Part shown: piece by piece, positions 3,924-17,837 of the stretch | Numbering within the stretch: the first letter of the stretch is position 1 | How the letters are laid out: each line of letters opens with the position of its first letter | Source: Bacteroidia bacterium | GTDB taxonomy: Bacteria > Bacteroidota > Bacteroidia > UKL13-3 | Direction of reading: 5' to 3' | Assembly: GCA_018058135.1 (NCBI GenBank) | Contig: JAGPCK010000009.1 | Location: forward strand, 2,843-66,842 | Length of the DNA stretch: 64,000 nucleotides | Notes under the pieces: generated by a model | Databases searched by the model: none | The model's input: the letters and a program-made list of their open reading frames with translations, nothing else | Told to the model about the DNA's origin: nothing | Made by a program: the position numbers and the translations under genes

Positions 3924-5342
3924 TTAAACTTCAGTTAAACCTGTTGCATTAATTTTTGAACGTTCCTGGTAGTTATCATAATCTGTATTTACATCCCACA
4001 GGTTATGGTTGCTGTTTTGTATAATATTTTCAGCTGTCATAATCCCCATTAAAATGCTATGATCCTGGTTATTGTATTTGAATGAACCTGTTCTGCCAAT
4101 AACACTCAAATTGGCTATACTACTCAGGTATTTTTCTATTGGTTTAAGGTGGTCCTTATATTTCAGGTTATAAACGGGGTAACAATTTTGAATTTTGTAC
4201 ACATATCCGTCCAGTACTTTTACTCCATTAACCAGATTAATTTTCTTAAACTCATCTTTAGCCAATTCAATTAAAAAATCATCATTCGCATTCCACAGAG
4301 AGTCGGTGTTACTGCACCAATATTCCATTACAATTATGGTTGTTTTTTGTTCCCTGTTTATTTCAGGAACAAAGTTTCTGAAATTGGTTATTCGCCCCGT
4401 TTTAACATCTTCAGAGTGAACATAAATCCAATTATCTGGAAATAGGTCAGTTCCTTCCAGATTGAGATATACTAAAATGGTGTTGCGAAATGAAAGTTTA
4501 TTTATACAAGCTAAAGTATCATTTGGTGTATCGTGCCATTGTTTTACCAGATGAGTTATTGGCATGGTTGATACAACATGATCATAGTGTACTACTTCAT
4601 CATTTTGCAAAACAACACCGGTTACTACCTTATCTGTTTTTTGAACATACTTTATTGGGGTATTACACTTTACCTTCCCTCCGTTTTCATTGATATACTT
4701 TTGCATTCGCTCATATATCATTCCAGTACCCTCATGTGGGTAAGCAAACTGATCAACAAGTGTTTTGTGCTGCACAGAACCAATTCCCAAGGCTTTTTTA
4801 ACGGCCTCGCCCAAGGAAAACTTTTTTATACGTTGAGCTGCAAAATCTGCATCCAGTTCATTGCACTTTATTCCCCATAGTTTTTCACTGTATGATTTAA
4901 AGAATATCTCAAACATTCTTTTGCCAAATCTTTTTATTACCCAGCTTTCAAAAGTTCCGTTTTGTTTTGTTGGTTTGATTTTCTCCTTTAAATAGCTCAA
5001 TACACAGTATGCAGATGATACAAATCCCAGTTTACTCAAAACATCAAAAGCTTTTACAGGATACTGGTACAGTTTATTTTTATAATATATACGCGTCAAT
5101 CTGTTAACCATTCTGTAGTCAGTACCTGCAAGTTCCAACCATAAACTGTTTACACGAGTATCTTCACTAAAAAATCGATGAGGCCCCAAATCTACTCTTT
5201 GTCCCCATAAGTCTATTGTTTTAGCAAGCCCCCCAACCTGAGCGGATGTTTCATACAGATCTACTTCAACTCCCTGTTTTACCAATTGATAGGCACAAGT
5301 AATACCGGCTGGACCAGCACCTATAATGGCTACTTTTTTCAT
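3924..5342 (-). CDS. FAD/NAD(P)-binding oxidoreductase (amine-oxidase / UDP-galactopyranose-mutase-like fold)
   Basis: N-terminal dinucleotide-binding motif KVAIIGAGPAGITCAYQL...YETSAQVGGL. 472 aa. Confidence 0.8.
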   Translation of the reverse strand: MKKVAIIGAGPAGITCAYQLVKQGVEVDLYETSAQVGGLAKTIDLWGQRVDLGPHRFFSEDTRVNSLWLELAGTDYRMVNRLTRIYYKNKLYQYPVKAFDVLSKLGFVSSAYCVLSYLKEKIKPTKQNGTFESWVIKRFGKRMFEIFFKSYSEKLWGIKCNELDADFAAQRIKKFSLGEAVKKALGIGSVQHKTLVDQFAYPHEGTGMIYERMQKYINENGGKVKCNTPIKYVQKTDKVVTGVVLQNDEVVHYDHVVSTMPITHLVKQWHDTPNDTLACINKLSFRNTILVYLNLEGTDLFPDNWIYVHSEDVKTGRITNFRNFVPEINREQKTTIIVMEYWCSNTDSLWNANDDFLIELAKDEFKKINLVNGVKVLDGYVYKIQNCYPVYNLKYKDHLKPIEKYLSSIANLSVIGRTGSFKYNNQDHSILMGIMTAENIIQNSNHNLWDVNTDYDNYQERSKINATGLTEV

Positions 5343-6820: not shown

Positions 6821-8065
6821 TTACTTTGTTGGCTGTTTAATCTTCTCTAAAATCAGTTCTGCCAGCTTTTGATTCATCGCTTTTGAATAATGGGTAAGAT
6901 CAACATACGGGTGGGTACAAAGGTTATGAGCATACGATAAATCATAGTAATGGGGTAATAGTTGATGTTTAATAGCTGTGCTAACTGAATGATACACCGG
7001 TTTTACATTTTTGTAAAGCCGAACATCGTCTTTAAAGGCAACAGTATCTTTAATAAATGGATTACTGCCCAAAAACGGACCAATGGGTTGTATAAAAACA
7101 ACAAATTCGAATTGGTACGCTTTGCTCAGTGCTTCTAAGAGTAGGAGGTTTGATTGAAAGTATTGGATCAGCTTTTTTGAAGAGATGGATGTATTTTTAG
7201 GTTGATGCAACAGTATTTCGTTGGCATAATAATGTAATACGGGTTGTTGAGTATAAAGAGAGTTCACTTGAGTGAAATTACCCAACACTTGAGCGTTAAT
7301 GCTTCCGTTTTTAATCAAATACTGTGCGAGGTATTGGTAATATAACTTTACTACGGGCAGGGCATAAAATAAATTTTTATTTAAACCTATTGTGCCGATG
7401 CTAAAATTGTGTGCGTACGCATTAACAGATCTGTTGGGTGTTTCATGTGCCTCAAAATTACTTTCTGTTATCTTATACAAATCATTCAGTCCATCTAAGA
7501 AAATTACTTTTGACGGCCGGTACCCTTTTTGTAATAACAACAATAGTTTTTCAATTTCCAGTTTTTGGTGATTACTCAACCCGCCAAAATTGATATACGT
7601 GTTACCCGGGTCCATTTTATTTAAGAAATAAGGAATGGTTTCATCATCGGTTACACCATCGCCAAAAACTGTGCTTCCGCCAAATACCCAGGTGCTGTTA
7701 TTTATTTTAGCCTTAATGTTGTGTTGGTTAACTAAAGAGTTGTACCTGCAATTTTCAAAACCTACATGGTAAAAATTTCCTGAACAGGGCATGGTCATAA
7801 ACTCCATCATGGGGTGAGCGGTTACATTTGGTCGTTCCCGGTATATAGCCGCAATTTCTTCAGTTGCTTTTCCATCATGAATAGTACGGATCAAATCAGG
7901 ACTGTTTTTTAATAACTGCTCAGGAGTATAATATAAATTTTCTGCTTGGGTATCACTCACAGGCGAGGGGATGAAATAGGCAATTATATTAATCAGAAGG
8001 AAAAGAATGCAGGTATTGGCAAAAACAGTGGTAACAGTTGAATATGTTAGTTGTATTTTTTTCAT
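6821..8065 (-). CDS. membrane-anchored SGNH/GDSL-like hydrolase candidate
   Basis: N-terminal TM helix after MKKIQL. WVFGGSTVFGDG is block-I-like and FLDGLNDL is a GxND-like block. The start was trimmed to ATG 8065. Confidence 0.4.
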   Translation of the reverse strand: MKKIQLTYSTVTTVFANTCILFLLINIIAYFIPSPVSDTQAENLYYTPEQLLKNSPDLIRTIHDGKATEEIAAIYRERPNVTAHPMMEFMTMPCSGNFYHVGFENCRYNSLVNQHNIKAKINNSTWVFGGSTVFGDGVTDDETIPYFLNKMDPGNTYINFGGLSNHQKLEIEKLLLLLQKGYRPSKVIFLDGLNDLYKITESNFEAHETPNRSVNAYAHNFSIGTIGLNKNLFYALPVVKLYYQYLAQYLIKNGSINAQVLGNFTQVNSLYTQQPVLHYYANEILLHQPKNTSISSKKLIQYFQSNLLLLEALSKAYQFEFVVFIQPIGPFLGSNPFIKDTVAFKDDVRLYKNVKPVYHSVSTAIKHQLLPHYYDLSYAHNLCTHPYVDLTHYSKAMNQKLAELILEKIKQPTK

Positions 8066-8298: not shown

Positions 8299-9465
8299 AT
8301 GAGGTCATTCGTATTTTTAACATTTACACTATTGCTTTGTGTTATTGTTACCGACTCCTGCAAGCATGAGTACGAAGAAACTGCCTTTAGTGATGAGGGA
8401 ATTACACTTAGATTGCGTTGGAACCCATCATATACCGGTGAAACAGCCGCAGATGCTGAAATTGCCCTTAAGTGGACGATCTCTTACCTGGGGGCTGAGT
8501 TGCCCAAAGGGAGTTTTGCCCGCACAGTAAAATGGGAAGATGACAGAATAATGCTGGTTAACCTCTCTCAAGCCGGTTTTAGTAAAAAGGCAGAGGTATT
8601 ACTGTTAAAACTAGTGCAGTTGCTTAAAATGTCGCAAGAGTATACGGTTAACAAGAGTATAGATTTGGGCCGTTTTATTTCCTTAACCATTGGTTCATCT
8701 CATCACTATTATCAAATAACTGATGTGGCTCCGCAATATTCCTCTTACAGAAGTAATTTTATTTTTGACATCAACCGTTATGCGCTTACTTCTTCTACCA
8801 TCAGTATAGAGCAACGTATGATTGAAGCAGGTATTTCCAATGTTTTGTCCCTTCCCGCATTTATTGCACATGAGGGCAGAGGTAGTTTGGCTAACGGTAC
8901 TTTCAATGTAAAAGAACAAGAGGTAATAGATGTTATGCGCAACGGCCAGGTGAGAGTTGCCATTTACAAAGCCGATGGTGGAACACTTGATGAAGCAGCC
9001 GACACAACCGTTTCTCTGGGAGGTAAACCAGCCAAATGTCTTTGGTGCCATGAGCTGTACTTTAACCCTTCCTTTTCCATAAATACCACAAATGTTCCCG
9101 GGTATTATACCTTTCAGCAATTTCAGCAAACTGTGGCTAACAGCATGAGCATTTTGAATCAATACCGCTCACAACTTAATGGTGACATTGATTTTGCTCA
9201 ACTTCAGGAACACGCTAAAATGGAAATTACTTACATCAGCTTTATGGAACCTTCGGCAAATAGATTAGCTTTGGAATGGAATAAAAGTATAGAAGAAGTA
9301 AAAACCATTATGGCCGGTTTGCCCACACATATTTATCCTGAATTTCCGTTTTTGGGGCAATTGTATTACCGAAGTGATGCTGATGCCAGATCTGCTTACA
9401 CTACCGTAAAAGTACCCGATTCAATCAGGGAGAAGTCAAATTATGAACCCGATTTACTGAAATGA
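8299..9465 (+). CDS. hypothetical lipoprotein with a single CxxCH motif
   Basis: Lipoprotein-type signal (LLLCVIVTDSC). CLWCH at nt 9037-9051. No other recognisable domain. Confidence 0.5.
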   Translation: MRSFVFLTFTLLLCVIVTDSCKHEYEETAFSDEGITLRLRWNPSYTGETAADAEIALKWTISYLGAELPKGSFARTVKWEDDRIMLVNLSQAGFSKKAEVLLLKLVQLLKMSQEYTVNKSIDLGRFISLTIGSSHHYYQITDVAPQYSSYRSNFIFDINRYALTSSTISIEQRMIEAGISNVLSLPAFIAHEGRGSLANGTFNVKEQEVIDVMRNGQVRVAIYKADGGTLDEAADTTVSLGGKPAKCLWCHELYFNPSFSINTTNVPGYYTFQQFQQTVANSMSILNQYRSQLNGDIDFAQLQEHAKMEITYISFMEPSANRLALEWNKSIEEVKTIMAGLPTHIYPEFPFLGQLYYRSDADARSAYTTVKVPDSIREKSNYEPDLLK

Positions 9466-10550
9466 GTTTAAGCACTAAATTATCAGGCCTTAACAGACGG
9501 TTATATCCGCAGCACCTTTTTTATGCTCCTGAGTGGCTGGTGTTGGGTGTAAACAATGTATGTAACCTGCATTGTAAAATGTGTGATGTAGGCATTGGGA
9601 ACAAAGAAACCAACTTTGCCCAAAACCTTACCGGAAGTAAGCCGTTGAACATGCCTTTGGAGTTAATTACAGATATTATTCAACAGGCGGGTAAGTATTA
9701 TCCTAAGGTTAAAATAGGGTATGCTTTTACTGAGCCTTTGGTATACCCTCATTTTATTGAATCGTTACATTTAGCCGGGCAAAACAATCTTTTTACCGCA
9801 GCCACAACTAACGCACTTACCTTACCGCAAAAGGCTGAGGGAATTTGCAAAGCAGGATTAAAAGAAATTAATATCTCACTTGACGGGCCGCAGGATATTC
9901 ATAATTACATTCGGGGAAACAAAAACTCTTTTCAAAAGGCCATTGAGGGTATAGAGAAATTGATAAGTTTTGATAAGCGACCTGATATCTCCGTATTTTG
10001 TGTAATAACGGAATGGAACGTTCCCTATCTGGTAGATTTTTTGAAAATATTTAATGCCTATCCGCTTAAGCAAATCGGGTTTATGCATACCAATTTTACC
10101 CCCGATTGGTTGGCCACAGAACACAACAAACAGTTTGGACATTTGTACCCCGCTACACTGTCCAATACGGAAGAGATTAATATAGAGAAAATGAACCTGG
10201 AGTTGTTGTGGGAACAATTGCAGGAAATTAAATCGACTGAATGGAATTTCCCGGTATCCTGCTCACCCGAAATTGGTTCCTTAACTAAACTGAAAGAGTT
10301 TTACTTAAATCCGGAGATTCCGTTTGGCAAAAAATGCAATGATGTGTTTCGAAACATCATGATTAAAACAGACGGTTCAGTTATACCGGCCCATGGCCGA
10401 TGCTTTAATCTTACTCTGGGCAATTTGCACCAACAAAGTTTACCCCAAATTTGGAACAGTGCGGTGTATTCTAAATTCCGTAAAACACTCAACAATGCCG
10501 GTGGCTTGTTCCCGGCTTGCAACAGGTGTTGCAGTGCTTTTAATGATTAA
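9462..10550 (+). CDS. radical SAM enzyme with Cys-rich C-terminal (SPASM-like) extension
   Basis: CNLHCKMC matches the CxxxCxxC cluster motif. The C-terminal Cys-rich tail reads GRCFNL...PACNRCCSAF. The start overlaps the upstream stop (ATGA at 9462-9465). Confidence 0.85.
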   Translation: MSLSTKLSGLNRRLYPQHLFYAPEWLVLGVNNVCNLHCKMCDVGIGNKETNFAQNLTGSKPLNMPLELITDIIQQAGKYYPKVKIGYAFTEPLVYPHFIESLHLAGQNNLFTAATTNALTLPQKAEGICKAGLKEINISLDGPQDIHNYIRGNKNSFQKAIEGIEKLISFDKRPDISVFCVITEWNVPYLVDFLKIFNAYPLKQIGFMHTNFTPDWLATEHNKQFGHLYPATLSNTEEINIEKMNLELLWEQLQEIKSTEWNFPVSCSPEIGSLTKLKEFYLNPEIPFGKKCNDVFRNIMIKTDGSVIPAHGRCFNLTLGNLHQQSLPQIWNSAVYSKFRKTLNNAGGLFPACNRCCSAFND

Positions 10551-10552
10551 CC

Positions 10553-11341
10553 ATGGGGTTTAACCTGCTCGACATTTTTGCAAAAGCCGGAGTTGACTAT
10601 CTGCACCCCGGAGGCAAAAAAAGCACCGCTTACCTTATCCAAAAAATAAAACCTGTTGATGGCATGAACGTGCTGGAAATAGGCTGCGGCACCGGTGCCA
10701 CATTGGCTCAACTTTCACAGCATACAGGCGTGCAATTATTCGGGGTTGATGTATCAGCAGAAATGTTAAAAACCGCAGAACAACGAATGGAGTATTGCGG
10801 CATTACTAAGGTAAGCCTGAAATGGATACAGCCGGGCGGGAAGCTGCCCTTTGAAGATAATTTTTTTGATGCGGTATATGCTGAATCAGTATTGGGTATA
10901 ATTGAGCCACCTGCTTTAAGTGTGTTACTGGCAGAAATTAAAAGAGTACTAAAACCGGCAGGTACATTTTTTTCGGTTGATGCTGTTTGGCAGTCAAACA
11001 CTCCTGTAGAAAAGATAAGAGAGATTAACCACCGCTGCAAAAAAGATTTCGGGATAATACAAAGCAATGAAAACCCCGGGGATGAAAATGAGTGGAAAGC
11101 CTTTTTTAGCCAAACGGGTTTTATCCATATAGCATCGCTTGAAATAAAGGAGATGAAAACGGATAACGAACACGTTCAATCTCTTTCTGATACGTTTACC
11201 AAGTATAAAAAGCGCACTGCCTTTCTCAACCCGGCCTTGGTAGCGGCTTATATAAGTTCTCTCGTACGGATAAAGTGTTTTCACCGGAATGACGGTAAAG
11301 ATTTGAAAAACTATTTCTTTCAAATGGAGAAAAGCGGGTAA
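10553..11341 (+). CDS. class I SAM-dependent methyltransferase
   Basis: Motif I VLEIGCGTGA, followed by the acidic-loop LFGVDVS. Confidence 0.85.
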   Translation: MGFNLLDIFAKAGVDYLHPGGKKSTAYLIQKIKPVDGMNVLEIGCGTGATLAQLSQHTGVQLFGVDVSAEMLKTAEQRMEYCGITKVSLKWIQPGGKLPFEDNFFDAVYAESVLGIIEPPALSVLLAEIKRVLKPAGTFFSVDAVWQSNTPVEKIREINHRCKKDFGIIQSNENPGDENEWKAFFSQTGFIHIASLEIKEMKTDNEHVQSLSDTFTKYKKRTAFLNPALVAAYISSLVRIKCFHRNDGKDLKNYFFQMEKSG

Positions 11342-11857: not shown

Positions 11858-13093
11858 ATGATTGAGATGTCACAAGAAAAGATTGAGTACTTTAAGCATA
11901 GCATAAGTGTGCTTCTTGTAACTGCTACTGATACAGAAGCAGCAGAATCAATCAATAATTTGAAACCGCTTCCAAATGAATCTGCAATCATTCAAATGTT
12001 CAGTGGAAGTCAAACTTATTATATAGGTACGCTAGGAATCTATGGAGTTGTTCTTGTGCAATCGGAAATGGGTTCTATTGGCCGAAATTCATCATTGCTG
12101 ACAACTTTACGAGCTATTGAAATATGGGAACCTAAGGCAATCATAATGGTTGGAGTTGCATTTGGTATTGACTCAAAAAAGCAACAAATAGGTGACGTTA
12201 TTGTTTCTAGTCACATAATTCCATATGAGAATTCAAGAATTGGCAAAGAGATTGTTTTTAGATCGGAACTTCCCCCTTCAAGCACAATTTTATTAAATAG
12301 AATTCGACAGATTAGAGATTGGAAGTTTCCAGTTAGTCATAACCAATTTGCAAAGCTGTATGTTGGACCAATACTGAGTGGAGAGAAATTAATTGATAAT
12401 ATTTCTTTTCGAAATGACTTAATCAGAGCGTTTCCTAATGCGATTGGTGGTGAAATGGAAAGTGTAGGTGTTTATGGGGCGGCTAACGAAAAGAAAATTG
12501 ACTGGTTAATAATAAAAAGTATTTGTGACTTTGCGGATGGTGAAAAAGGCAAATTCAAAAAGGAATTTCAATCTATTGCAATTAAGTCGGCAATAAGTTT
12601 TACCGAAAGGGTTTTGAATATTCGATCAGGGTTTGGTGAATTAGGCTTTAAACCTCTAAAAGAATCATCATCAACTGACCCTACTATAACATATAAAGAT
12701 AGGCTAAAAGACTTAATGGCATTGTTTGATGCCATCGCTACACAGCCAAAGGAGAAGGATGGAAATATATTTAAGGTTGCTGCTCGTCAAATAGTTCAGA
12801 CAGAAGTAGAGAGCAAATACGATTCTAATGTTTCAAGACTTCAGATGCTGATACCGAAAAATGTATTAGAATCCTTTGAAATGAGAATTGAGAGATGTTG
12901 GACAATGTATAATAAAGTCTTAGTCGCTGACAGGGAATATTTACCTGACGATATAGATGATTCTTCTTACGCACTACAAAAGTGCATATGCAGAGAACTT
13001 CAAAGACTTTTATTTGTTAATGGAGACATTCCTGACGGACTTATGCAACAATATTGGGATAAGTATAAATGTGAAACAAATAATCCAACGTAG
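11858..13093 (+). CDS. PNP/MTA-SAH-nucleosidase-fold (PNP_UDP_1-like) protein with an unassigned C-terminal domain of about 140 aa; candidate nucleotide-depleting immune effector
   Basis: SVLLVTATDTE, SEMGSIG, AIIMVGVAFG, GGEMESVGVYGAA (nt 12446-12484) and CDFADGEK follow the order of motifs in phosphorylase-family nucleosidases. Residues about 270-411 have no motif I recognise. Confidence 0.7.
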   Translation: MIEMSQEKIEYFKHSISVLLVTATDTEAAESINNLKPLPNESAIIQMFSGSQTYYIGTLGIYGVVLVQSEMGSIGRNSSLLTTLRAIEIWEPKAIIMVGVAFGIDSKKQQIGDVIVSSHIIPYENSRIGKEIVFRSELPPSSTILLNRIRQIRDWKFPVSHNQFAKLYVGPILSGEKLIDNISFRNDLIRAFPNAIGGEMESVGVYGAANEKKIDWLIIKSICDFADGEKGKFKKEFQSIAIKSAISFTERVLNIRSGFGELGFKPLKESSSTDPTITYKDRLKDLMALFDAIATQPKEKDGNIFKVAARQIVQTEVESKYDSNVSRLQMLIPKNVLESFEMRIERCWTMYNKVLVADREYLPDDIDDSSYALQKCICRELQRLLFVNGDIPDGLMQQYWDKYKCETNNPT

Positions 13094-13095
13094 CT

Positions 13096-13230
13096 GCGCC
13101 TAACAGCACATTTGCAATAGGCGGGGTTTCGTGCTCCGCAGACAGCTTTGTGGTAGCCGAAAGTTCAGTCCTCCGAATGAACATTTGTGCTGAAAATCCC
13201 GCCCATCGCAAATGTGCAAAACGTTATGCG
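13096..13230. repeat. attC-like / MITE-like inverted-repeat element between gene units
   Basis: The arm GCACATTTGCAATAGGCGGGG (13106-13126) pairs with CCCGCCCATCGCAAATGTGC (13198-13217). The outer GCCTAAC (13098-13104) pairs with GTTATGC (13223-13229). Confidence 0.85.
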
Positions 13231-13257: not shown

Positions 13258-14667
13258 ATGAAAATGAAAGTATTTATATCATATTCTGAAAGAGACAGAG
13301 AGTTTGCCTTGCTATTGAAAGAAAGACTTTCAAGCGAAAATAACATCAATATATTCTTTGATGAACACTCCTTAGAAATGGGTGGAAACATTGAACGAAT
13401 AATGATGAGAAAACTTGAGGAGTTTGATTACTATTTAATTGTAATGTCAAAATATTCTGTCAAATCTAAATATCTAATGATAGAGTTAGACAGAGTAATA
13501 TTTAGGGAAATTAAGAGTGAAAAGCAAACCATTATTCCAATTGCAATTGATGAATATGCATTGGACTTCCCTGTCATAAGAGAATTTTCTAGTAGGCAAT
13601 TAATTGATTTCTCTAAAAGTTTTGAAAACGGCTATAAAAACTTGATAAAACGCTTAAATCAAGACCAACAAAAAAAAATAGCCATTAAAGAATTCAACCC
13701 AGAAGAAACGAAGAAAATAAATGACAACTTTCTTAAGGAAATAAAAGAAGAGTTTAAAAAAGGTAGTTTATGTCTATTTTGTGGTGCTGGTGTTTCAATT
13801 AAGGCAGGAATACCGAATTGGAGTTTCCTTCTTAAAGGCTTGCTTCAAAATTTAGTGGACAAACAGCTTGGAGACTTTTCTATAGACCCTAAAAAACAAA
13901 GACAATTAGCAGAATTTTATTATGATGAGTTTGGTGTTTCGTCTTTAATTGTTGGTCAATATTTAAAAAATGGATTAGGAGAATCTTTTCTAGAAGATGT
14001 CAGAGATGCACTGTATCAAAATAACCCAACAGACAGTGATATCTTAAATACGATAGTCGAATTATGCCGTCCACAAAGAGAACGTAAGACTTTGAATTCA
14101 ATAATCACATTCAATTTTGACGATTTAATTGAAACCAACTTACAAAAAAACAGAATAAAGCATAGACCTATTCACAGTGAAGGACAAAGAGCCTTGAATT
14201 CTGAAATTCCAATATACCACCCTCATGGCTTCTTACCTAGAAAGCAAAAGCTTTCAGAGCAAAATGAAATCGTCTTTTCTGAAGACGCATATCACTCACA
14301 ATTTATTGAGCCGTTCAGTTGGAGCAATTTAGTCCAACTAAATCATTTAAATAATAATACTTGCTTACTTGTTGGAATTAGTTTGACTGATCCGAATTTA
14401 AGACGACTCCTTGATGTTTCGATGAGAAAGAACCCTGATAAACAATTAAGACACTACATATTTAAAAAACGTTACAGCACTGAGGAAATAAAGGAAAAAC
14501 TAGCTAAATCTGAATTGAGTGGTGATAAGAGTTTTTTTACCAACAACTTTATTTATATGACTGAACTTTTGGAGGAGCAAGACGCAAGAAAACTTGGACT
14601 AAACGTTATTTGGATAAAGGACTTTGAAGAAATAAATAATTTTCTAACACGGTTAAATGAAGAATAA
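13258..14667 (+). CDS. TIR domain - SIR2 (SIR2_2-type) domain fusion protein; candidate NAD+-consuming defence protein
   Basis: The N-terminus KVFISYSERDREFALLLKERL...VMSKYSVKSKYLMIELD is TIR_2-like. The C-terminal part has LFCGAGVSIKAGIPNW (GAG at 13783-13791), ITFNFDDL, IYHPHGF (His at 14224-14226) and LLVGISLTDPNLRRLL, the SIR2_2 motif order. ATG 13258 is preferred over TTG 13252. Confidence 0.8.
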   Translation: MKMKVFISYSERDREFALLLKERLSSENNINIFFDEHSLEMGGNIERIMMRKLEEFDYYLIVMSKYSVKSKYLMIELDRVIFREIKSEKQTIIPIAIDEYALDFPVIREFSSRQLIDFSKSFENGYKNLIKRLNQDQQKKIAIKEFNPEETKKINDNFLKEIKEEFKKGSLCLFCGAGVSIKAGIPNWSFLLKGLLQNLVDKQLGDFSIDPKKQRQLAEFYYDEFGVSSLIVGQYLKNGLGESFLEDVRDALYQNNPTDSDILNTIVELCRPQRERKTLNSIITFNFDDLIETNLQKNRIKHRPIHSEGQRALNSEIPIYHPHGFLPRKQKLSEQNEIVFSEDAYHSQFIEPFSWSNLVQLNHLNNNTCLLVGISLTDPNLRRLLDVSMRKNPDKQLRHYIFKKRYSTEEIKEKLAKSELSGDKSFFTNNFIYMTELLEEQDARKLGLNVIWIKDFEEINNFLTRLNEE

Positions 14668-14806: not shown

Positions 14807-15721
14807 ATGAAAAATCAAGATATAATTGACATCGTTGACATTAATCAAGAGTTTGATAAAATCAAGTCCCGTCTGCATTTGTTGTCTGACCGATTTCTTG
14901 CTGTGGCCATGGACTACAAACACTATGTGGATAGTTCATTTAAGGAGGACAGAATCTATGCACTTCGTGATAATGTTCAGTATAGGTTGTTCTCTGCAAA
15001 AATCCACTTAGAATTGTTGCTGCGACAACACATTTGGATCCAGGAAAGATTGGAGAAAGGATTTAATAATAATCCTAAAGTTGTAACAGACGATTACATT
15101 CCTATCAACCCCTACTTCGACATCTATCAAAAGGAAATTTCATCAATACTTGACAGTTTTGTTTATCACATTAGCTCAGTGTTTGACTATTTAAGCACTC
15201 TTACAAATTATATTGGCGGCTCAAATCGATACGACACCCTAATGTGGACACAACTCGCGAAATCAGTGAGGGACGGAAAGAACGCCTACAGTAAAAGACT
15301 GTTTGCCAGTACAATTGACAACATAGATCGGGACTTCGTTAGTAAGTTGTATGACCATCGAGCTTTTATAATTCACAGAAATGCCGATCCAAGTGGCTAT
15401 AGTGTAACTTTGTTTCTTGGACAAACTGAAAGGATTAAAGTCAATTTTCTTGCTGGCAAAAATCTTGTCAAGAATTTTAAAGAGTTAAAATCGCTAAGTA
15501 AGGAAAAGCACCCTACTGTGAAATACGTTGCCTTTTGGATGCTTAATAAATCAATTGACAAGGTGACTGATATTTTATTTGCACTTAAAAAGGAAATGGA
15601 ATTTGATCCCAAAGTAAAGACTCCATTTATGTACTATTTACATCCCGAGACAAAAAAGGCATTACCAGTTTCATCGATATACTGGCATGAAGATCTATAC
15701 TTAAAAGAGAATGGTGAATAG
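14807..15721 (+). CDS. hypothetical protein with an RX4H motif (possible HEPN-like RNase)
   Basis: 304 aa, helix-rich by composition. There is a single RAFIIH motif (Arg at 15359-15361, His at 15374-15376) in the context YDHRAFIIHRN. There is no other recognisable domain, so the call is tentative. Confidence 0.3.
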   Translation: MKNQDIIDIVDINQEFDKIKSRLHLLSDRFLAVAMDYKHYVDSSFKEDRIYALRDNVQYRLFSAKIHLELLLRQHIWIQERLEKGFNNNPKVVTDDYIPINPYFDIYQKEISSILDSFVYHISSVFDYLSTLTNYIGGSNRYDTLMWTQLAKSVRDGKNAYSKRLFASTIDNIDRDFVSKLYDHRAFIIHRNADPSGYSVTLFLGQTERIKVNFLAGKNLVKNFKELKSLSKEKHPTVKYVAFWMLNKSIDKVTDILFALKKEMEFDPKVKTPFMYYLHPETKKALPVSSIYWHEDLYLKENGE

Positions 15722-17369: not shown

Positions 17370-17837
17370 ATGGAAACAGATGACGGAAGCCCGGCAAGCA
17401 AAATATGGCCATTGGTAAAGTTTACTTTTGTAGTAGACCTGGGTGCAGGTATGAAAAGTGTGGCATTTCTAGAAGTTTCCGGATTGGATGCTGAAAACTC
17501 AACTATTGAATACCGTAAAAGTAATAGCCCGCTCTTCTCCACAGAAAAAATGCCGGGAATAGCTAAGTACCGTAATGTAACTCTGAAAAAAGGTGTATTT
17601 GTAAATGACAATGCTTTTTGGAATTGGTACAATCAAATAATGATGAATACGATTAAAAGGCAAACGATTTTAATAAAACTACTAGATGAAACCGGTGGCG
17701 TAGCCATGCAATGGCAATTAAATAATGCATGGCCAACAAAAATAACAAGCACCGATTTAAAATCTGATGGCAATGAAATAGCAGTTGATACACTTGAGAT
17801 TGCTCACGAACAACTTATCATATCGAATGGCTTGTAA
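17370..17837 (+). CDS. contractile-tail tube protein (T4 gp19 / Afp1-Pvc1-like family), orphan copy
   Basis: WPLVKFTFVVD...FLEVSGLDAENSTIEYRKSNSPLFSTEKMPGIAKYRNVTLKKGVF..DNAFWNWYN...ILIKLLDE...WQLNNAWPTKITSTDLKSDGNEIAVDTLEIAHEQL follows the conserved pattern of eCIS/phage tube proteins nearly block for block. Confidence 0.85.
   Translation: METDDGSPASKIWPLVKFTFVVDLGAGMKSVAFLEVSGLDAENSTIEYRKSNSPLFSTEKMPGIAKYRNVTLKKGVFVNDNAFWNWYNQIMMNTIKRQTILIKLLDETGGVAMQWQLNNAWPTKITSTDLKSDGNEIAVDTLEIAHEQLIISNGL

Follow-up and report, generated by a model that had tools for sequence, protein, structure and literature searches.

The stretch of DNA analysed here, 64,000 nucleotides of contig JAGPCK010000009.1 from a Bacteroidia bacterium (assembly GCA_018058135.1; hereafter the window), carries on its plus strand at 13258..14667 a gene whose product joins a TIR domain and a SIR2 domain in a single chain of 469 amino acids. 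The open reading frame (ORF) of this TIR-SIR2 gene is intact, spans 13252/13258..14667 and comprises 469 codons plus the stop when read from the ATG at 13258; its limits were drawn from the ORF list, the public annotation and the homolog alignment. Public assemblies give the same gene call with the ATG 13258 start, and the homolog alignment indicates an alternative ATG at 13264 (M3, the third codon) that is equivalent to the start in most homologs. The GC content of the gene is 31.3 %, as against 39.2 % for the whole window.

Both domains were recognised by profile searches with scores far above the cut-offs. This upholds the proposal, made earlier in a sequence-only reading of the window, that TIR and SIR2 are fused in one polypeptide, and it answers in the affirmative whether the N-terminus is truly TIR and the C-terminus truly SIR2. 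Pfam TIR_2 covers aa 5-130 with 72.4 bits (cut-off 28; E 5.8e-20), the Pfam TIR profile scores 26.9 bits on the N-terminus, and Pfam SIR2_2 covers aa 281-417 with 72.8 bits (cut-off 24.5; E 4e-20). An AlphaFold2 (AF2) model of the monomer was built from 38 homologs, with a mean predicted local distance difference test score (pLDDT) of 82 and a predicted template modelling score (pTM) of 0.80. Pfam TIR_2, the AF2 secondary structure and the PDB sequence matches, which fall on AbTIR (7uwg/8g83) and on the TIR-APAZ protein of SPARTA (8fex), place the TIR domain, a flavodoxin-like beta-alpha fold, at aa 3-135 (13264..13662, plus strand). It is followed by an inter-domain linker at aa ~136-147 (13663..13698, plus strand), which has no regular secondary structure in the model (there the TIR fold spans aa 3-133 and the unstructured stretch ~134-147), and then by the SIR2_2 or 'SIRim' NAD+ glycohydrolase (NADase) domain at aa 148-469 (13699..14664, plus strand), which includes a helical insert at aa 188-270 and is supported by Pfam, the PADLOC ThsA profile and Foldseek.

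The sequence-only reading had named the C-terminal half correctly as SIR2_2, but the extent it gave, ~aa 165-400, falls short of the real one, ~148-469. In the AF2 model one continuous Rossmann-type domain runs from helix 148-168, which aligns with ThsA residues 7-51, through the C-terminal helix 457-467. The string quoted earlier as a Lys/Glu-rich linker is present, but its second half (ETKKINDNFLKEIKEEFKKGS) is this first SIR2 helix, and the linker proper is confined to ~136-147. In the same manner, the ~70-aa tail described earlier does lack SLOG, SAVED or any other binding domain, but it is no tail: its elements (beta399-404, alpha408-416, alpha424-445, beta448-453 and alpha457-467) all belong to the Rossmann fold, of which they make up the last beta-alpha-beta-alpha. 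The PADLOC ThsA profile scores 80.9 bits on the SIR2 half, compared with 45 for LmuA and 43 for Dsr1, and its alignment extends as far as aa 468, where the profile stands at position 276/478, the border between SIR2 and SLOG. Foldseek searches against the PDB aligned ~325-340 columns, the whole of aa ~148-469, onto the SIR2 domains of ThsA, KomC and DSR2; the top match is BcThsA (E 2.4e-13), SeThsA, EcThsA and DSR2 are also among the matches, and KomC, a stand-alone SIR2 of 264 aa, is fully covered (TMt 0.74-0.79). How far the ThsA profile extends, together with the AF2 secondary structure and the Foldseek matches, rules out a SLOG-like or other binding domain hidden in the C-terminal 70 aa; residues ~148-469 make up one SIR2 domain of the ThsA/KomC/DSR2 type, which leaves no space for a SLOG. 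Searches of Pfam, NCBIfam, PADLOC and PDB sequences and with Foldseek detected no SLOG, SAVED, Macro, APAZ or further domain, and the NCBIfam and PADLOC matches to defence proteins with a TIR or a SIR2 were partial throughout, no model spanning the whole chain. All 469 residues are accounted for by the TIR domain, a 12-aa linker and the SIR2 domain.

Residue conservation was counted across 148 full-length homologs. In the TIR domain, E76 (codon 13483..13485, plus strand) is the putative catalytic Glu; it aligns with the Glu of the AbTIR motif 'WTNYELD' and with that of the SPARTA TIR-APAZ protein, and is Glu in 141 of the 148. Four residues before it, Y72 (13471-13473, plus strand) occupies the conserved-Trp position, at which Trp or Tyr is found in 112/148. 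The BB-loop, aa 39-44 (13372..13389, plus strand), keeps G42 in 131 and N44 in 124 homologs, and the pLDDT of the model drops below 50 at aa 38-44, as expected of a mobile loop. In the SIR2 domain, the NAD-binding glycine motif G176-A177-G178 (13783..13791, plus strand) aligns with 'FAGAGLS' of ThsA and is retained in 148, 147 and 148 homologs, respectively. N286-F287-D288, in the string TFNFDD (14113..14121, plus strand), has its Asn in 147 and its Asp in all 148, with N286 corresponding to ThsA N112 and KomC N107. The histidines of H321-P322-H323 (YHPHG; 14218..14226, plus strand) required separate consideration: H321 is an extra His present in 148/148, but as a candidate for the SIR2 catalytic His it was rejected, the residue-level alignments to 6lhx, 8bto and 8zsf pointing instead to H323, which is found in 145/148 and corresponds to ThsA H152 and KomC H146. 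D378, N380, R382 and R383 are each present in 148/148, and D442, G447 and W452, which lie within the former tail, are near-invariant in the family.

No CxxC pairs occur in the SIR2 half (aa 148-469), which consequently lacks the zinc-binding module of deacetylase sirtuins; a SIR2_2 class without this module has been described (PMC12700824). The catalytic residues, whose absence on proper alignment had been named as a possible objection to the fusion, are thus present, and because they are conserved across the 148 homologs both active sites are under selection. Judged by sequence criteria, the C-terminal half has the marks of a SIR2_2/SIRim domain (Rossmann GAG motif, putative catalytic Asn and His, no zinc CxxC module), and the N-terminal half those of an enzymatic bacterial TIR of the TIR_2, AbTIR/SPARTA type (TIR fold, putative catalytic Glu on alpha-C, aromatic residue at -4).

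The family is large, and the gene is an unremarkable member of it. A word-indexed search gave > 2,240 relatives, and the best 120 of these are nearly all proteins of ~395-500 aa with TIR_2 plus SIR2_2, from many lineages, along with a few shorter partial ones. An exhaustive HMMER scan of 1.84 billion 50 %-identity representatives yielded 6,033 hits at E <= 1e-3, among them 544 at E <= 1e-30. In GTDB, taken at one genome per species, at least 264 stretches encode a relative, and the best 80 of the 264 (the 80 loci below) were compared in detail; a full-length TIR-SIR2 is found in 70 of them. Their hosts include bacteria of the Bacteroidota, Pseudomonadota, Desulfobacterota, Bacillota, Chloroflexota, Actinomycetota, Planctomycetota, Acidobacteriota, Cyanobacteria, Chlorobiota, Armatimonadota and Caldisericota, and methanogenic archaea (Methanospirillum, Methanobrevibacter). 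The distribution is patchy across bacteria and archaea, in the manner of horizontal gene transfer. One member, from a metagenome-assembled genome of the Acidimicrobiia (L064:5393-8329), is a 978-aa relative with ~540 extra residues ahead of TIR-SIR2, a candidate sensor extension.

All-versus-all clustering of 997 ORFs from the 80 loci revealed no conserved neighbour family. A survey of how frequent the TIR-SIR2_2 architecture is, and of what stands beside it, had been suggested by the sequence-only reading, and its outcome is that the architecture is common and that no partner is conserved. The largest partner at a fixed position is a ~200-aa protein at +1 in eight loci, all of them in the most divergent Clostridia/Methanobrevibacter subclade (L071-L079, e.g. 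L076:2071-2688); it has an N-terminal hydrophobic helix and no PADLOC match, and this subclade may represent a two-gene system. Three of its loci also have an ORF of ~109 aa upstream, again with no PADLOC match. Other recurring neighbour clusters are histidine kinases, ABC transporters, short-chain dehydrogenases/reductases and similar.

Sequence divergence provides a further view of how the two halves are held together. The window gene and its closest relative, at the locus designated L001, are 93-94 % identical in protein and 82 % in DNA; Nei-Gojobori nonsynonymous divergence (dN) amounts to 0.050 for TIR and 0.037 for SIR2, with synonymous sites saturated, and both halves are under strong purifying selection. 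Mean pairwise identity is 0.54 in SIR2, 0.40 in TIR and 0.12 in the linker. The correlation between the distance matrices of TIR and SIR2 is r = 0.77, compared with 0.86 for the control in which the two halves of SIR2 are set against each other, and 0 of 500 Mantel permutations reach the observed value. The fusion is old and evolves as one unit.

The SIR2 clade as a whole is modular at its N-terminus. Among the best 150 50 %-cluster representatives, 36 carry a TIR of ~143 aa, 73 another module of ~175 aa and ~30 little or nothing, the last group including genuine SIR2-only genes of ~320 aa such as those at L030, L032 and L077. The ~175-aa module has no Pfam or PADLOC match; it bears a conserved D...G...E-[IV]-K signature and an alpha-beta-beta-beta-alpha-beta topology in its AF2 model (m21f9dd038545, pLDDT 92), and is therefore probably a PD-(D/E)xK nuclease-like fold. 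Proteins of this sister family resemble TIR-SIR2 in their SIR2 half, which is of the same clade and 36-40 % identical across aa ~145-466, clade motifs included, and in having just a short module ahead of the SIR2 and no further part; they differ in that the D...E-x-K module replaces the TIR. The sister family, of ~500 aa (P0143-P0267), outnumbers TIR-SIR2 among the cluster representatives. Four clade motifs, SPL..A[QR]Y, C.P.R, FSE[ED].YH....DP[FY].WSNL.QLN and DPNLRRLL, are common to the TIR and the nuclease-like architectures, which makes them features of the SIR2 module itself, not of an interface specific to the TIR. Since the same SIR2 clade also occurs with the PD-(D/E)xK-like module or with none, the TIR is one of several interchangeable N-terminal modules. 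That SIR2 is more conserved than TIR is the usual pattern of a constant effector with a variable trigger module.

At the nucleotide level, the gene is bounded on its 5' side by a palindromic intergenic element of ~120 nt (13104..13225, not assigned to a strand), which lies directly upstream of it. The arms of 24 nt are inverted repeats at 13106-13129 and 13194-13217, and the predicted RNA fold has an energy of -58.7 kcal/mol (z = -4.8). The same palindrome stands upstream of the orthologue in L001, with compensatory changes in its arms, and L001 holds a second copy (the two L001 elements lie at ~6836-6960 and ~4660-4800). Rfam gave no match for the palindrome, and Rfam and tRNA scans around the gene came back empty; the element may be part of a mobile cassette, a boundary of such a cassette resembling a repetitive extragenic palindrome (REP) or a miniature inverted-repeat transposable element (MITE), or a structured 5' leader. 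A scan for sigma-70 promoters and terminators was uninformative, as its counts did not exceed those in shuffled sequence and the host is one of the Bacteroidota. Between the window and L001, DNA similarity is confined to the gene and ~150 nt upstream, palindrome included. Because the similarity ends at the gene and its upstream element, and the gene is a GC outlier, it behaves as a single-gene cassette. The flanks of a 94 %-identical protein (P0001), encoded on six contigs, also differ from those in the window: upstream lies a 314-aa orphan, downstream a GTP_EFTU_D3-like gene, and on one of the contigs a HEPN gene and an integrase are found farther along. No remote relationship was found between the genes flanking TIR-SIR2 in the window and the orphans at the locus of the closest relative. 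In IMG/VR, full-length copies are present on three viral contigs and relatives of the SIR2 half on ten.

In the window, the TIR-SIR2 gene is the middle member of a low-GC (34.7 %) stretch of three genes on the same strand with short gaps. The upstream neighbour (11858-13093, plus strand) encodes a 411-aa protein like purine nucleoside phosphorylase (PNP) and MTAN, with an N-terminal domain of MTA/SAH-nucleosidase (PNP_UDP_1) type (PDB matches at 3e-14) and an unannotated C-terminal part of ~160 aa; it matches the PADLOC PDC-M60C model and the 'PN-superfamily' effector models of CBASS, and may be an independent nucleosidase-type defence effector. The downstream neighbour (14807-15721, plus strand) is a 304-aa orphan without a match in Pfam, NCBIfam, PADLOC or PDB sequences. 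Just 5' of the low-GC stretch, at 9462-11341 (plus strand), lie genes for a radical-SAM/SPASM protein, whose weak similarity to the pVip profile probably reflects the generic radical-SAM core, and then for a class I methyltransferase with a PADLOC mad2 match (E 1.3e-20). Further downstream, at 17370-17837 (plus strand), a lone Phage_T4_gp19 gene, tail-tube-like, stands amid housekeeping genes (LysE, glyoxalase, DUF1801). The 64-kb window holds no second TIR or SIR2 homolog, and thus no separate thsB.

Defence genes were sought among the immediate neighbours of the family by a PADLOC scan of 144 genes at positions +/-1 and +/-2 in 74 loci. Strong matches were obtained to MADS mad3/mad8, PD-T7-1, PD-T7-5, PbeA, TmtA, NsnA/B, PDC-S31/S42/S57/S18, PDC-M50A and CARF. 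In 5 of the 80 loci a Thoeris-type gene lies no more than five genes from the family member: a PDC-S66/ThsB1-type TIR at -1 in L059 (L059:6071-6982, E 1.7e-110); PDC-S66/ThsB-type TIRs at +1 in L069 (L069:7912-8844), where it adjoins a SIR2-only member to form a SLOG-less Thoeris-like pair, at +3 in L001 (L001:10390-11166) and at -4 in L044 (L044:4253-5455); and a complete ThsA at +5 in L078 (L078:11872-13299, E 4e-143).

In type I Thoeris, the TIR protein makes a cyclic ADP-ribose (cADPR) isomer, 1''-3' gcADPR, and this signal is read by the SLOG domain of a separate SIR2 effector. TIR-SIR2 shares the domain types of that system: its SIR2 is nearest to the SIR2 of ThsA in both sequence and fold, with the catalytic Asn and His aligned, a catalytic Glu is found in its TIR as in the signal-producing TIRs, and NAD+ depletion would be the expected output. 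In contrast to Thoeris, TIR and SIR2 lie in one chain, the SLOG is absent, and in place of a separate thsB there is none in the window and none conserved in the family. The domain order differs as well, the TIR being N-terminal in TIR-SIR2, whereas in ThsA the SIR2 is N-terminal and the SLOG follows. With one chain, no SLOG and no separate thsB, the relay from gcADPR to SLOG cannot run as it does in Thoeris. By its sequence, then, the protein has a ThsA-type SIR2 but neither the SLOG nor the adjacent thsB of a type I Thoeris system, and to speak of a TIR 'producer' and a SIR2 'effector' is to borrow the terms by analogy with Thoeris.

Among other systems, bSEFIR (Millman et al. 2022) has in common with TIR-SIR2 a single-gene layout and an N-terminal domain of the STIR clan, and is reported in preprints to deplete NAD+. 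In the preprint of Millman et al. the N-terminal domain is required to score SEFIR above TIR. Here, the PADLOC bSEFIR profile matches the N-terminal 138 aa (E 1.2e-10, profile positions 36-185/412), the SIR2 half alone has no match to it, and Pfam SEFIR (PF08357) gives none at E <= 1. A full-length PADLOC match that could have implied a bSEFIR with a hidden SIR2 vanished when the halves were scanned separately and was discarded as an envelope artefact; unlike bSEFIR, TIR-SIR2 has a TIR_2 N-terminus and a C-terminal region that is not bSEFIR-like. The fold and the catalytic Asn and His are shared with KomC of Kongming, the SIR2 domain of DSR2 and FAM118B, immune NADases that are activated by oligomers or filaments or work as such (PDB titles; PMC12700824). 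KomC, however, needs KomA/KomB and dITP, while TIR-SIR2 has only its TIR besides the SIR2, and DSR2 has a sensor of > 700 aa that binds the phage tail tube, while TIR-SIR2 ends with the SIR2 at aa 469; the Dsr1 profile matches only over its first ~256 positions, which sets the protein outside DSR1/DSR2. With SPARTA/SPARSA there is a full-length alignment of the TIR to that of TIR-APAZ, catalytic Glu included, and a similar logic of an NADase switched by oligomerisation, but TIR-SIR2 has neither the APAZ/PNTD region nor an Argonaute partner: Aga_TIR-PNTD profiles match only the TIR part (positions 3-141), and no pAgo occurs among the neighbours.

Putting the two domains in cis without a receptor was taken by the sequence-only reading to imply a different activation logic. 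The idea gains strength from the lack of a conserved partner in the 80 loci, the solitary mobility of the gene, the purifying selection and the co-evolution of its halves, but these observations do not single out one of the three logics put forward there (direct TIR-SIR2 allostery, activation by oligomerisation, or two NADase activities independent of each other). The interpretation we favour, and to which we would assign an about even chance, is that of an autonomous single-protein NAD+-depleting abortive-infection effector activated by self-assembly. It is the best supported because the protein has two NADase-type sites that look competent and no receptor or partner, the N-termini of its clade are modular, and its relatives are activated by assembly: the SIR2 finds its best structural matches in ThsA and KomC in helical or filament form, and the best matches of the TIR are AbTIR, SPARTA and Cat1, all filament- or oligomer-forming. 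The BB-loop of the TIR, conserved yet mobile in the model, fits such activation. In keeping with a defence role are the patchy distribution, the low GC of the gene, the known or candidate defence genes beside some family members, the HEPN gene and integrase near the closest relative, and the full-length copies on viral contigs. We infer a role in defence, NADase activity, a trigger, activation driven by oligomerisation and a division of labour between the domains, which could operate as follows. The C-terminal ThsA-like SIR2 would be the conserved NAD+ glycohydrolase, and the TIR would fill the place taken in other SIR2 systems by SLOG, APAZ or large sensors, serving as trigger and self-assembly module and probably also as a second NAD+-cleaving site. 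A phage-derived cue would be sensed directly by the TIR-SIR2 protein, upon which head-to-tail TIR-TIR association would nucleate higher-order oligomers or filaments. Within such assemblies the SIR2 active site and a composite TIR site would become competent, and the ensuing collapse of NAD+ would abort phage replication, with need of neither a diffusible second messenger nor a receptor domain.

Several observations weigh against this interpretation. No trigger or sensing surface was identified in TIR-SIR2, and no named defence-system model spans the full protein. Full-length copies were found neither in PLSDB plasmids, in which three matches cover the SIR2 half, nor in cultured phages, in which there was no match. 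In the Pfam view, the same 144 neighbours are dominated by housekeeping families, and the association with defence islands, as judged from raw neighbour counts, is real for a subset of loci and only partial. Finally, the near-universal TIR Glu argues that the TIR is no mere scaffold, and its product could itself be a signal.

This last point keeps alive the main rival, a short-circuited form of Thoeris in which the TIR would make a cADPR-isomer-type or other NAD-derived signal that activates the SIR2, whether in its own or in an adjacent molecule, by way of a non-SLOG pocket; we regard it as unlikely. Besides the 95 % conservation of the TIR Glu, the conserved aromatic residue at -4, the similarity of the TIR to the cyclase-type AbTIR above all others and the ThsA-like character of the SIR2 are in line with it, as are the five loci with a ThsB/PDC-S66-type TIR or true ThsA no more than five genes away. 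Such a pocket would nevertheless have to exist in a protein with no SLOG, Macro, SAVED or other ligand-binding fold, whose C-terminal 320 aa superpose wholly on bare SIR2 domains; moreover, the SIR2-only and nuclease-SIR2 sisters keep the same SIR2 motifs without a TIR, and fusing producer to receiver forfeits the amplification that a diffusible signal offers. Less probable than this is that the protein simply houses two independent, uncoupled NADases, whether as redundancy against phage inhibitors or for a wider NAD(P)+ substrate range. In its favour are the conservation of the two catalytic centres, the NADase activity that the literature has proven for each domain type in other defence systems, and the short, unconserved linker; but the halves co-evolve almost as tightly as two halves of SIR2 itself, the fusion is stable across phyla, and constitutively independent enzymes would still need a common trigger. 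This account also overlaps with the self-assembly model, which allows for TIR catalysis.

A role of the TIR as a signalling adaptor, instead of or besides that of an enzyme, ranks lower again: direct TIR-TIR scaffold assembly might be homotypic, with a phage component sensed, or heterotypic with ThsB/PDC-S66 TIRs. If true, it would amount to a messenger-free relay onto a sirtuin NADase, a bacterial counterpart of TLR/MyD88-style scaffolding joined to an enzymatic death effector, and would place the protein, in evolutionary terms, midway between the scaffold and the signal type of TIR immunity. The stricter version, in which the gene is not autonomous and separate ThsB/PDC-S66-like sensor TIRs recruit the SIR2 effector by homotypic docking, seems very improbable to us; the PDC-S66/ThsB-type TIR genes at L059, L069, L001 and L044 speak for it, but such a gene is present in only ~5 of the 80 loci and absent from the 64-kb window, no neighbour is conserved overall, and a pure adaptor would have no need of a conserved catalytic Glu. 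Hardly more credit is due to a non-immune function, whether as an NAD-dependent deacylase or ADP-ribosyltransferase with a housekeeping or regulatory task, or as a toxin of the inter-bacterial or toxin-antitoxin kind. Many loci have housekeeping neighbours only, and some public sources label homologs 'NAD-dependent SIR2 family protein deacetylase'; against that label stands the membership in the SIR2_2 class, which is devoid of the CxxC zinc module of deacetylase sirtuins (PMC12700824), and every one of the nearest relatives is an immune NADase, the family occurs in a patchy, transfer-like manner, and no antitoxin-like neighbour is conserved. The least probable account, with a very slight chance in our estimation, is a three-gene system made up of the PNP/MTAN-like 411-aa protein, TIR-SIR2 and the 304-aa orphan. 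Apart from their shared strand, short gaps and low GC, the trio recurs in two assemblies that carry an identical TIR-SIR2 protein, and the PNP protein has matches to a candidate component in PADLOC and to a class of CBASS effectors. As a general system, however, the trio was rejected, since tblastn finds neither neighbour in any of the 80 loci, neither is beside P0001 on its six contigs, and DNA similarity to the closest relative stops at the gene borders.

The terms 'TIR-SIR2', 'SIR2-TIR' and 'TIR-sirtuin' do not occur in the literature searched. Burroughs et al. 2015 (NAR) reportedly catalogued fusions among such effector domains. The architecture can be seen in Pfam annotations that are already precomputed. 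In the literature searched, the only mention is in the FAM118 paper (PMC12700824), where the legend to Extended Data Fig. 2 says that a TIR domain is found in some SIR2_2 proteins; reviews describe TIR and SIR2 as partner domains borne by separate proteins. As far as can be told, TIR-SIR2 is a catalogued but apparently uncharacterised architecture, and because it is not rare its novelty lies in being uncharacterised rather than unusual.

Overall, the TIR-SIR2 family is a new variant within the well-known NAD+-depleting immune proteins. Such immunity employs few effector domains (TIR, SIR2, SEFIR, RES, NIR), and to our knowledge these are wired in every characterised case to a recognisable sensor or receptor. 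Here, in a large family spread over many phyla, two effector domains stand alone with no conserved partner; if TIR-SIR2 defends alone, sensing and activation must reside in the TIR and/or SIR2 domains. The protein therefore offers a minimal system for how TIR and SIR2 NADases are switched on and for whether the TIR is needed for catalysis or for scaffolding. It also bears on how the two-component signalling of Thoeris could have arisen from, or collapsed into, a fusion, and together with the nuclease-SIR2 sister family it would supply missing models for defence-annotation tools.

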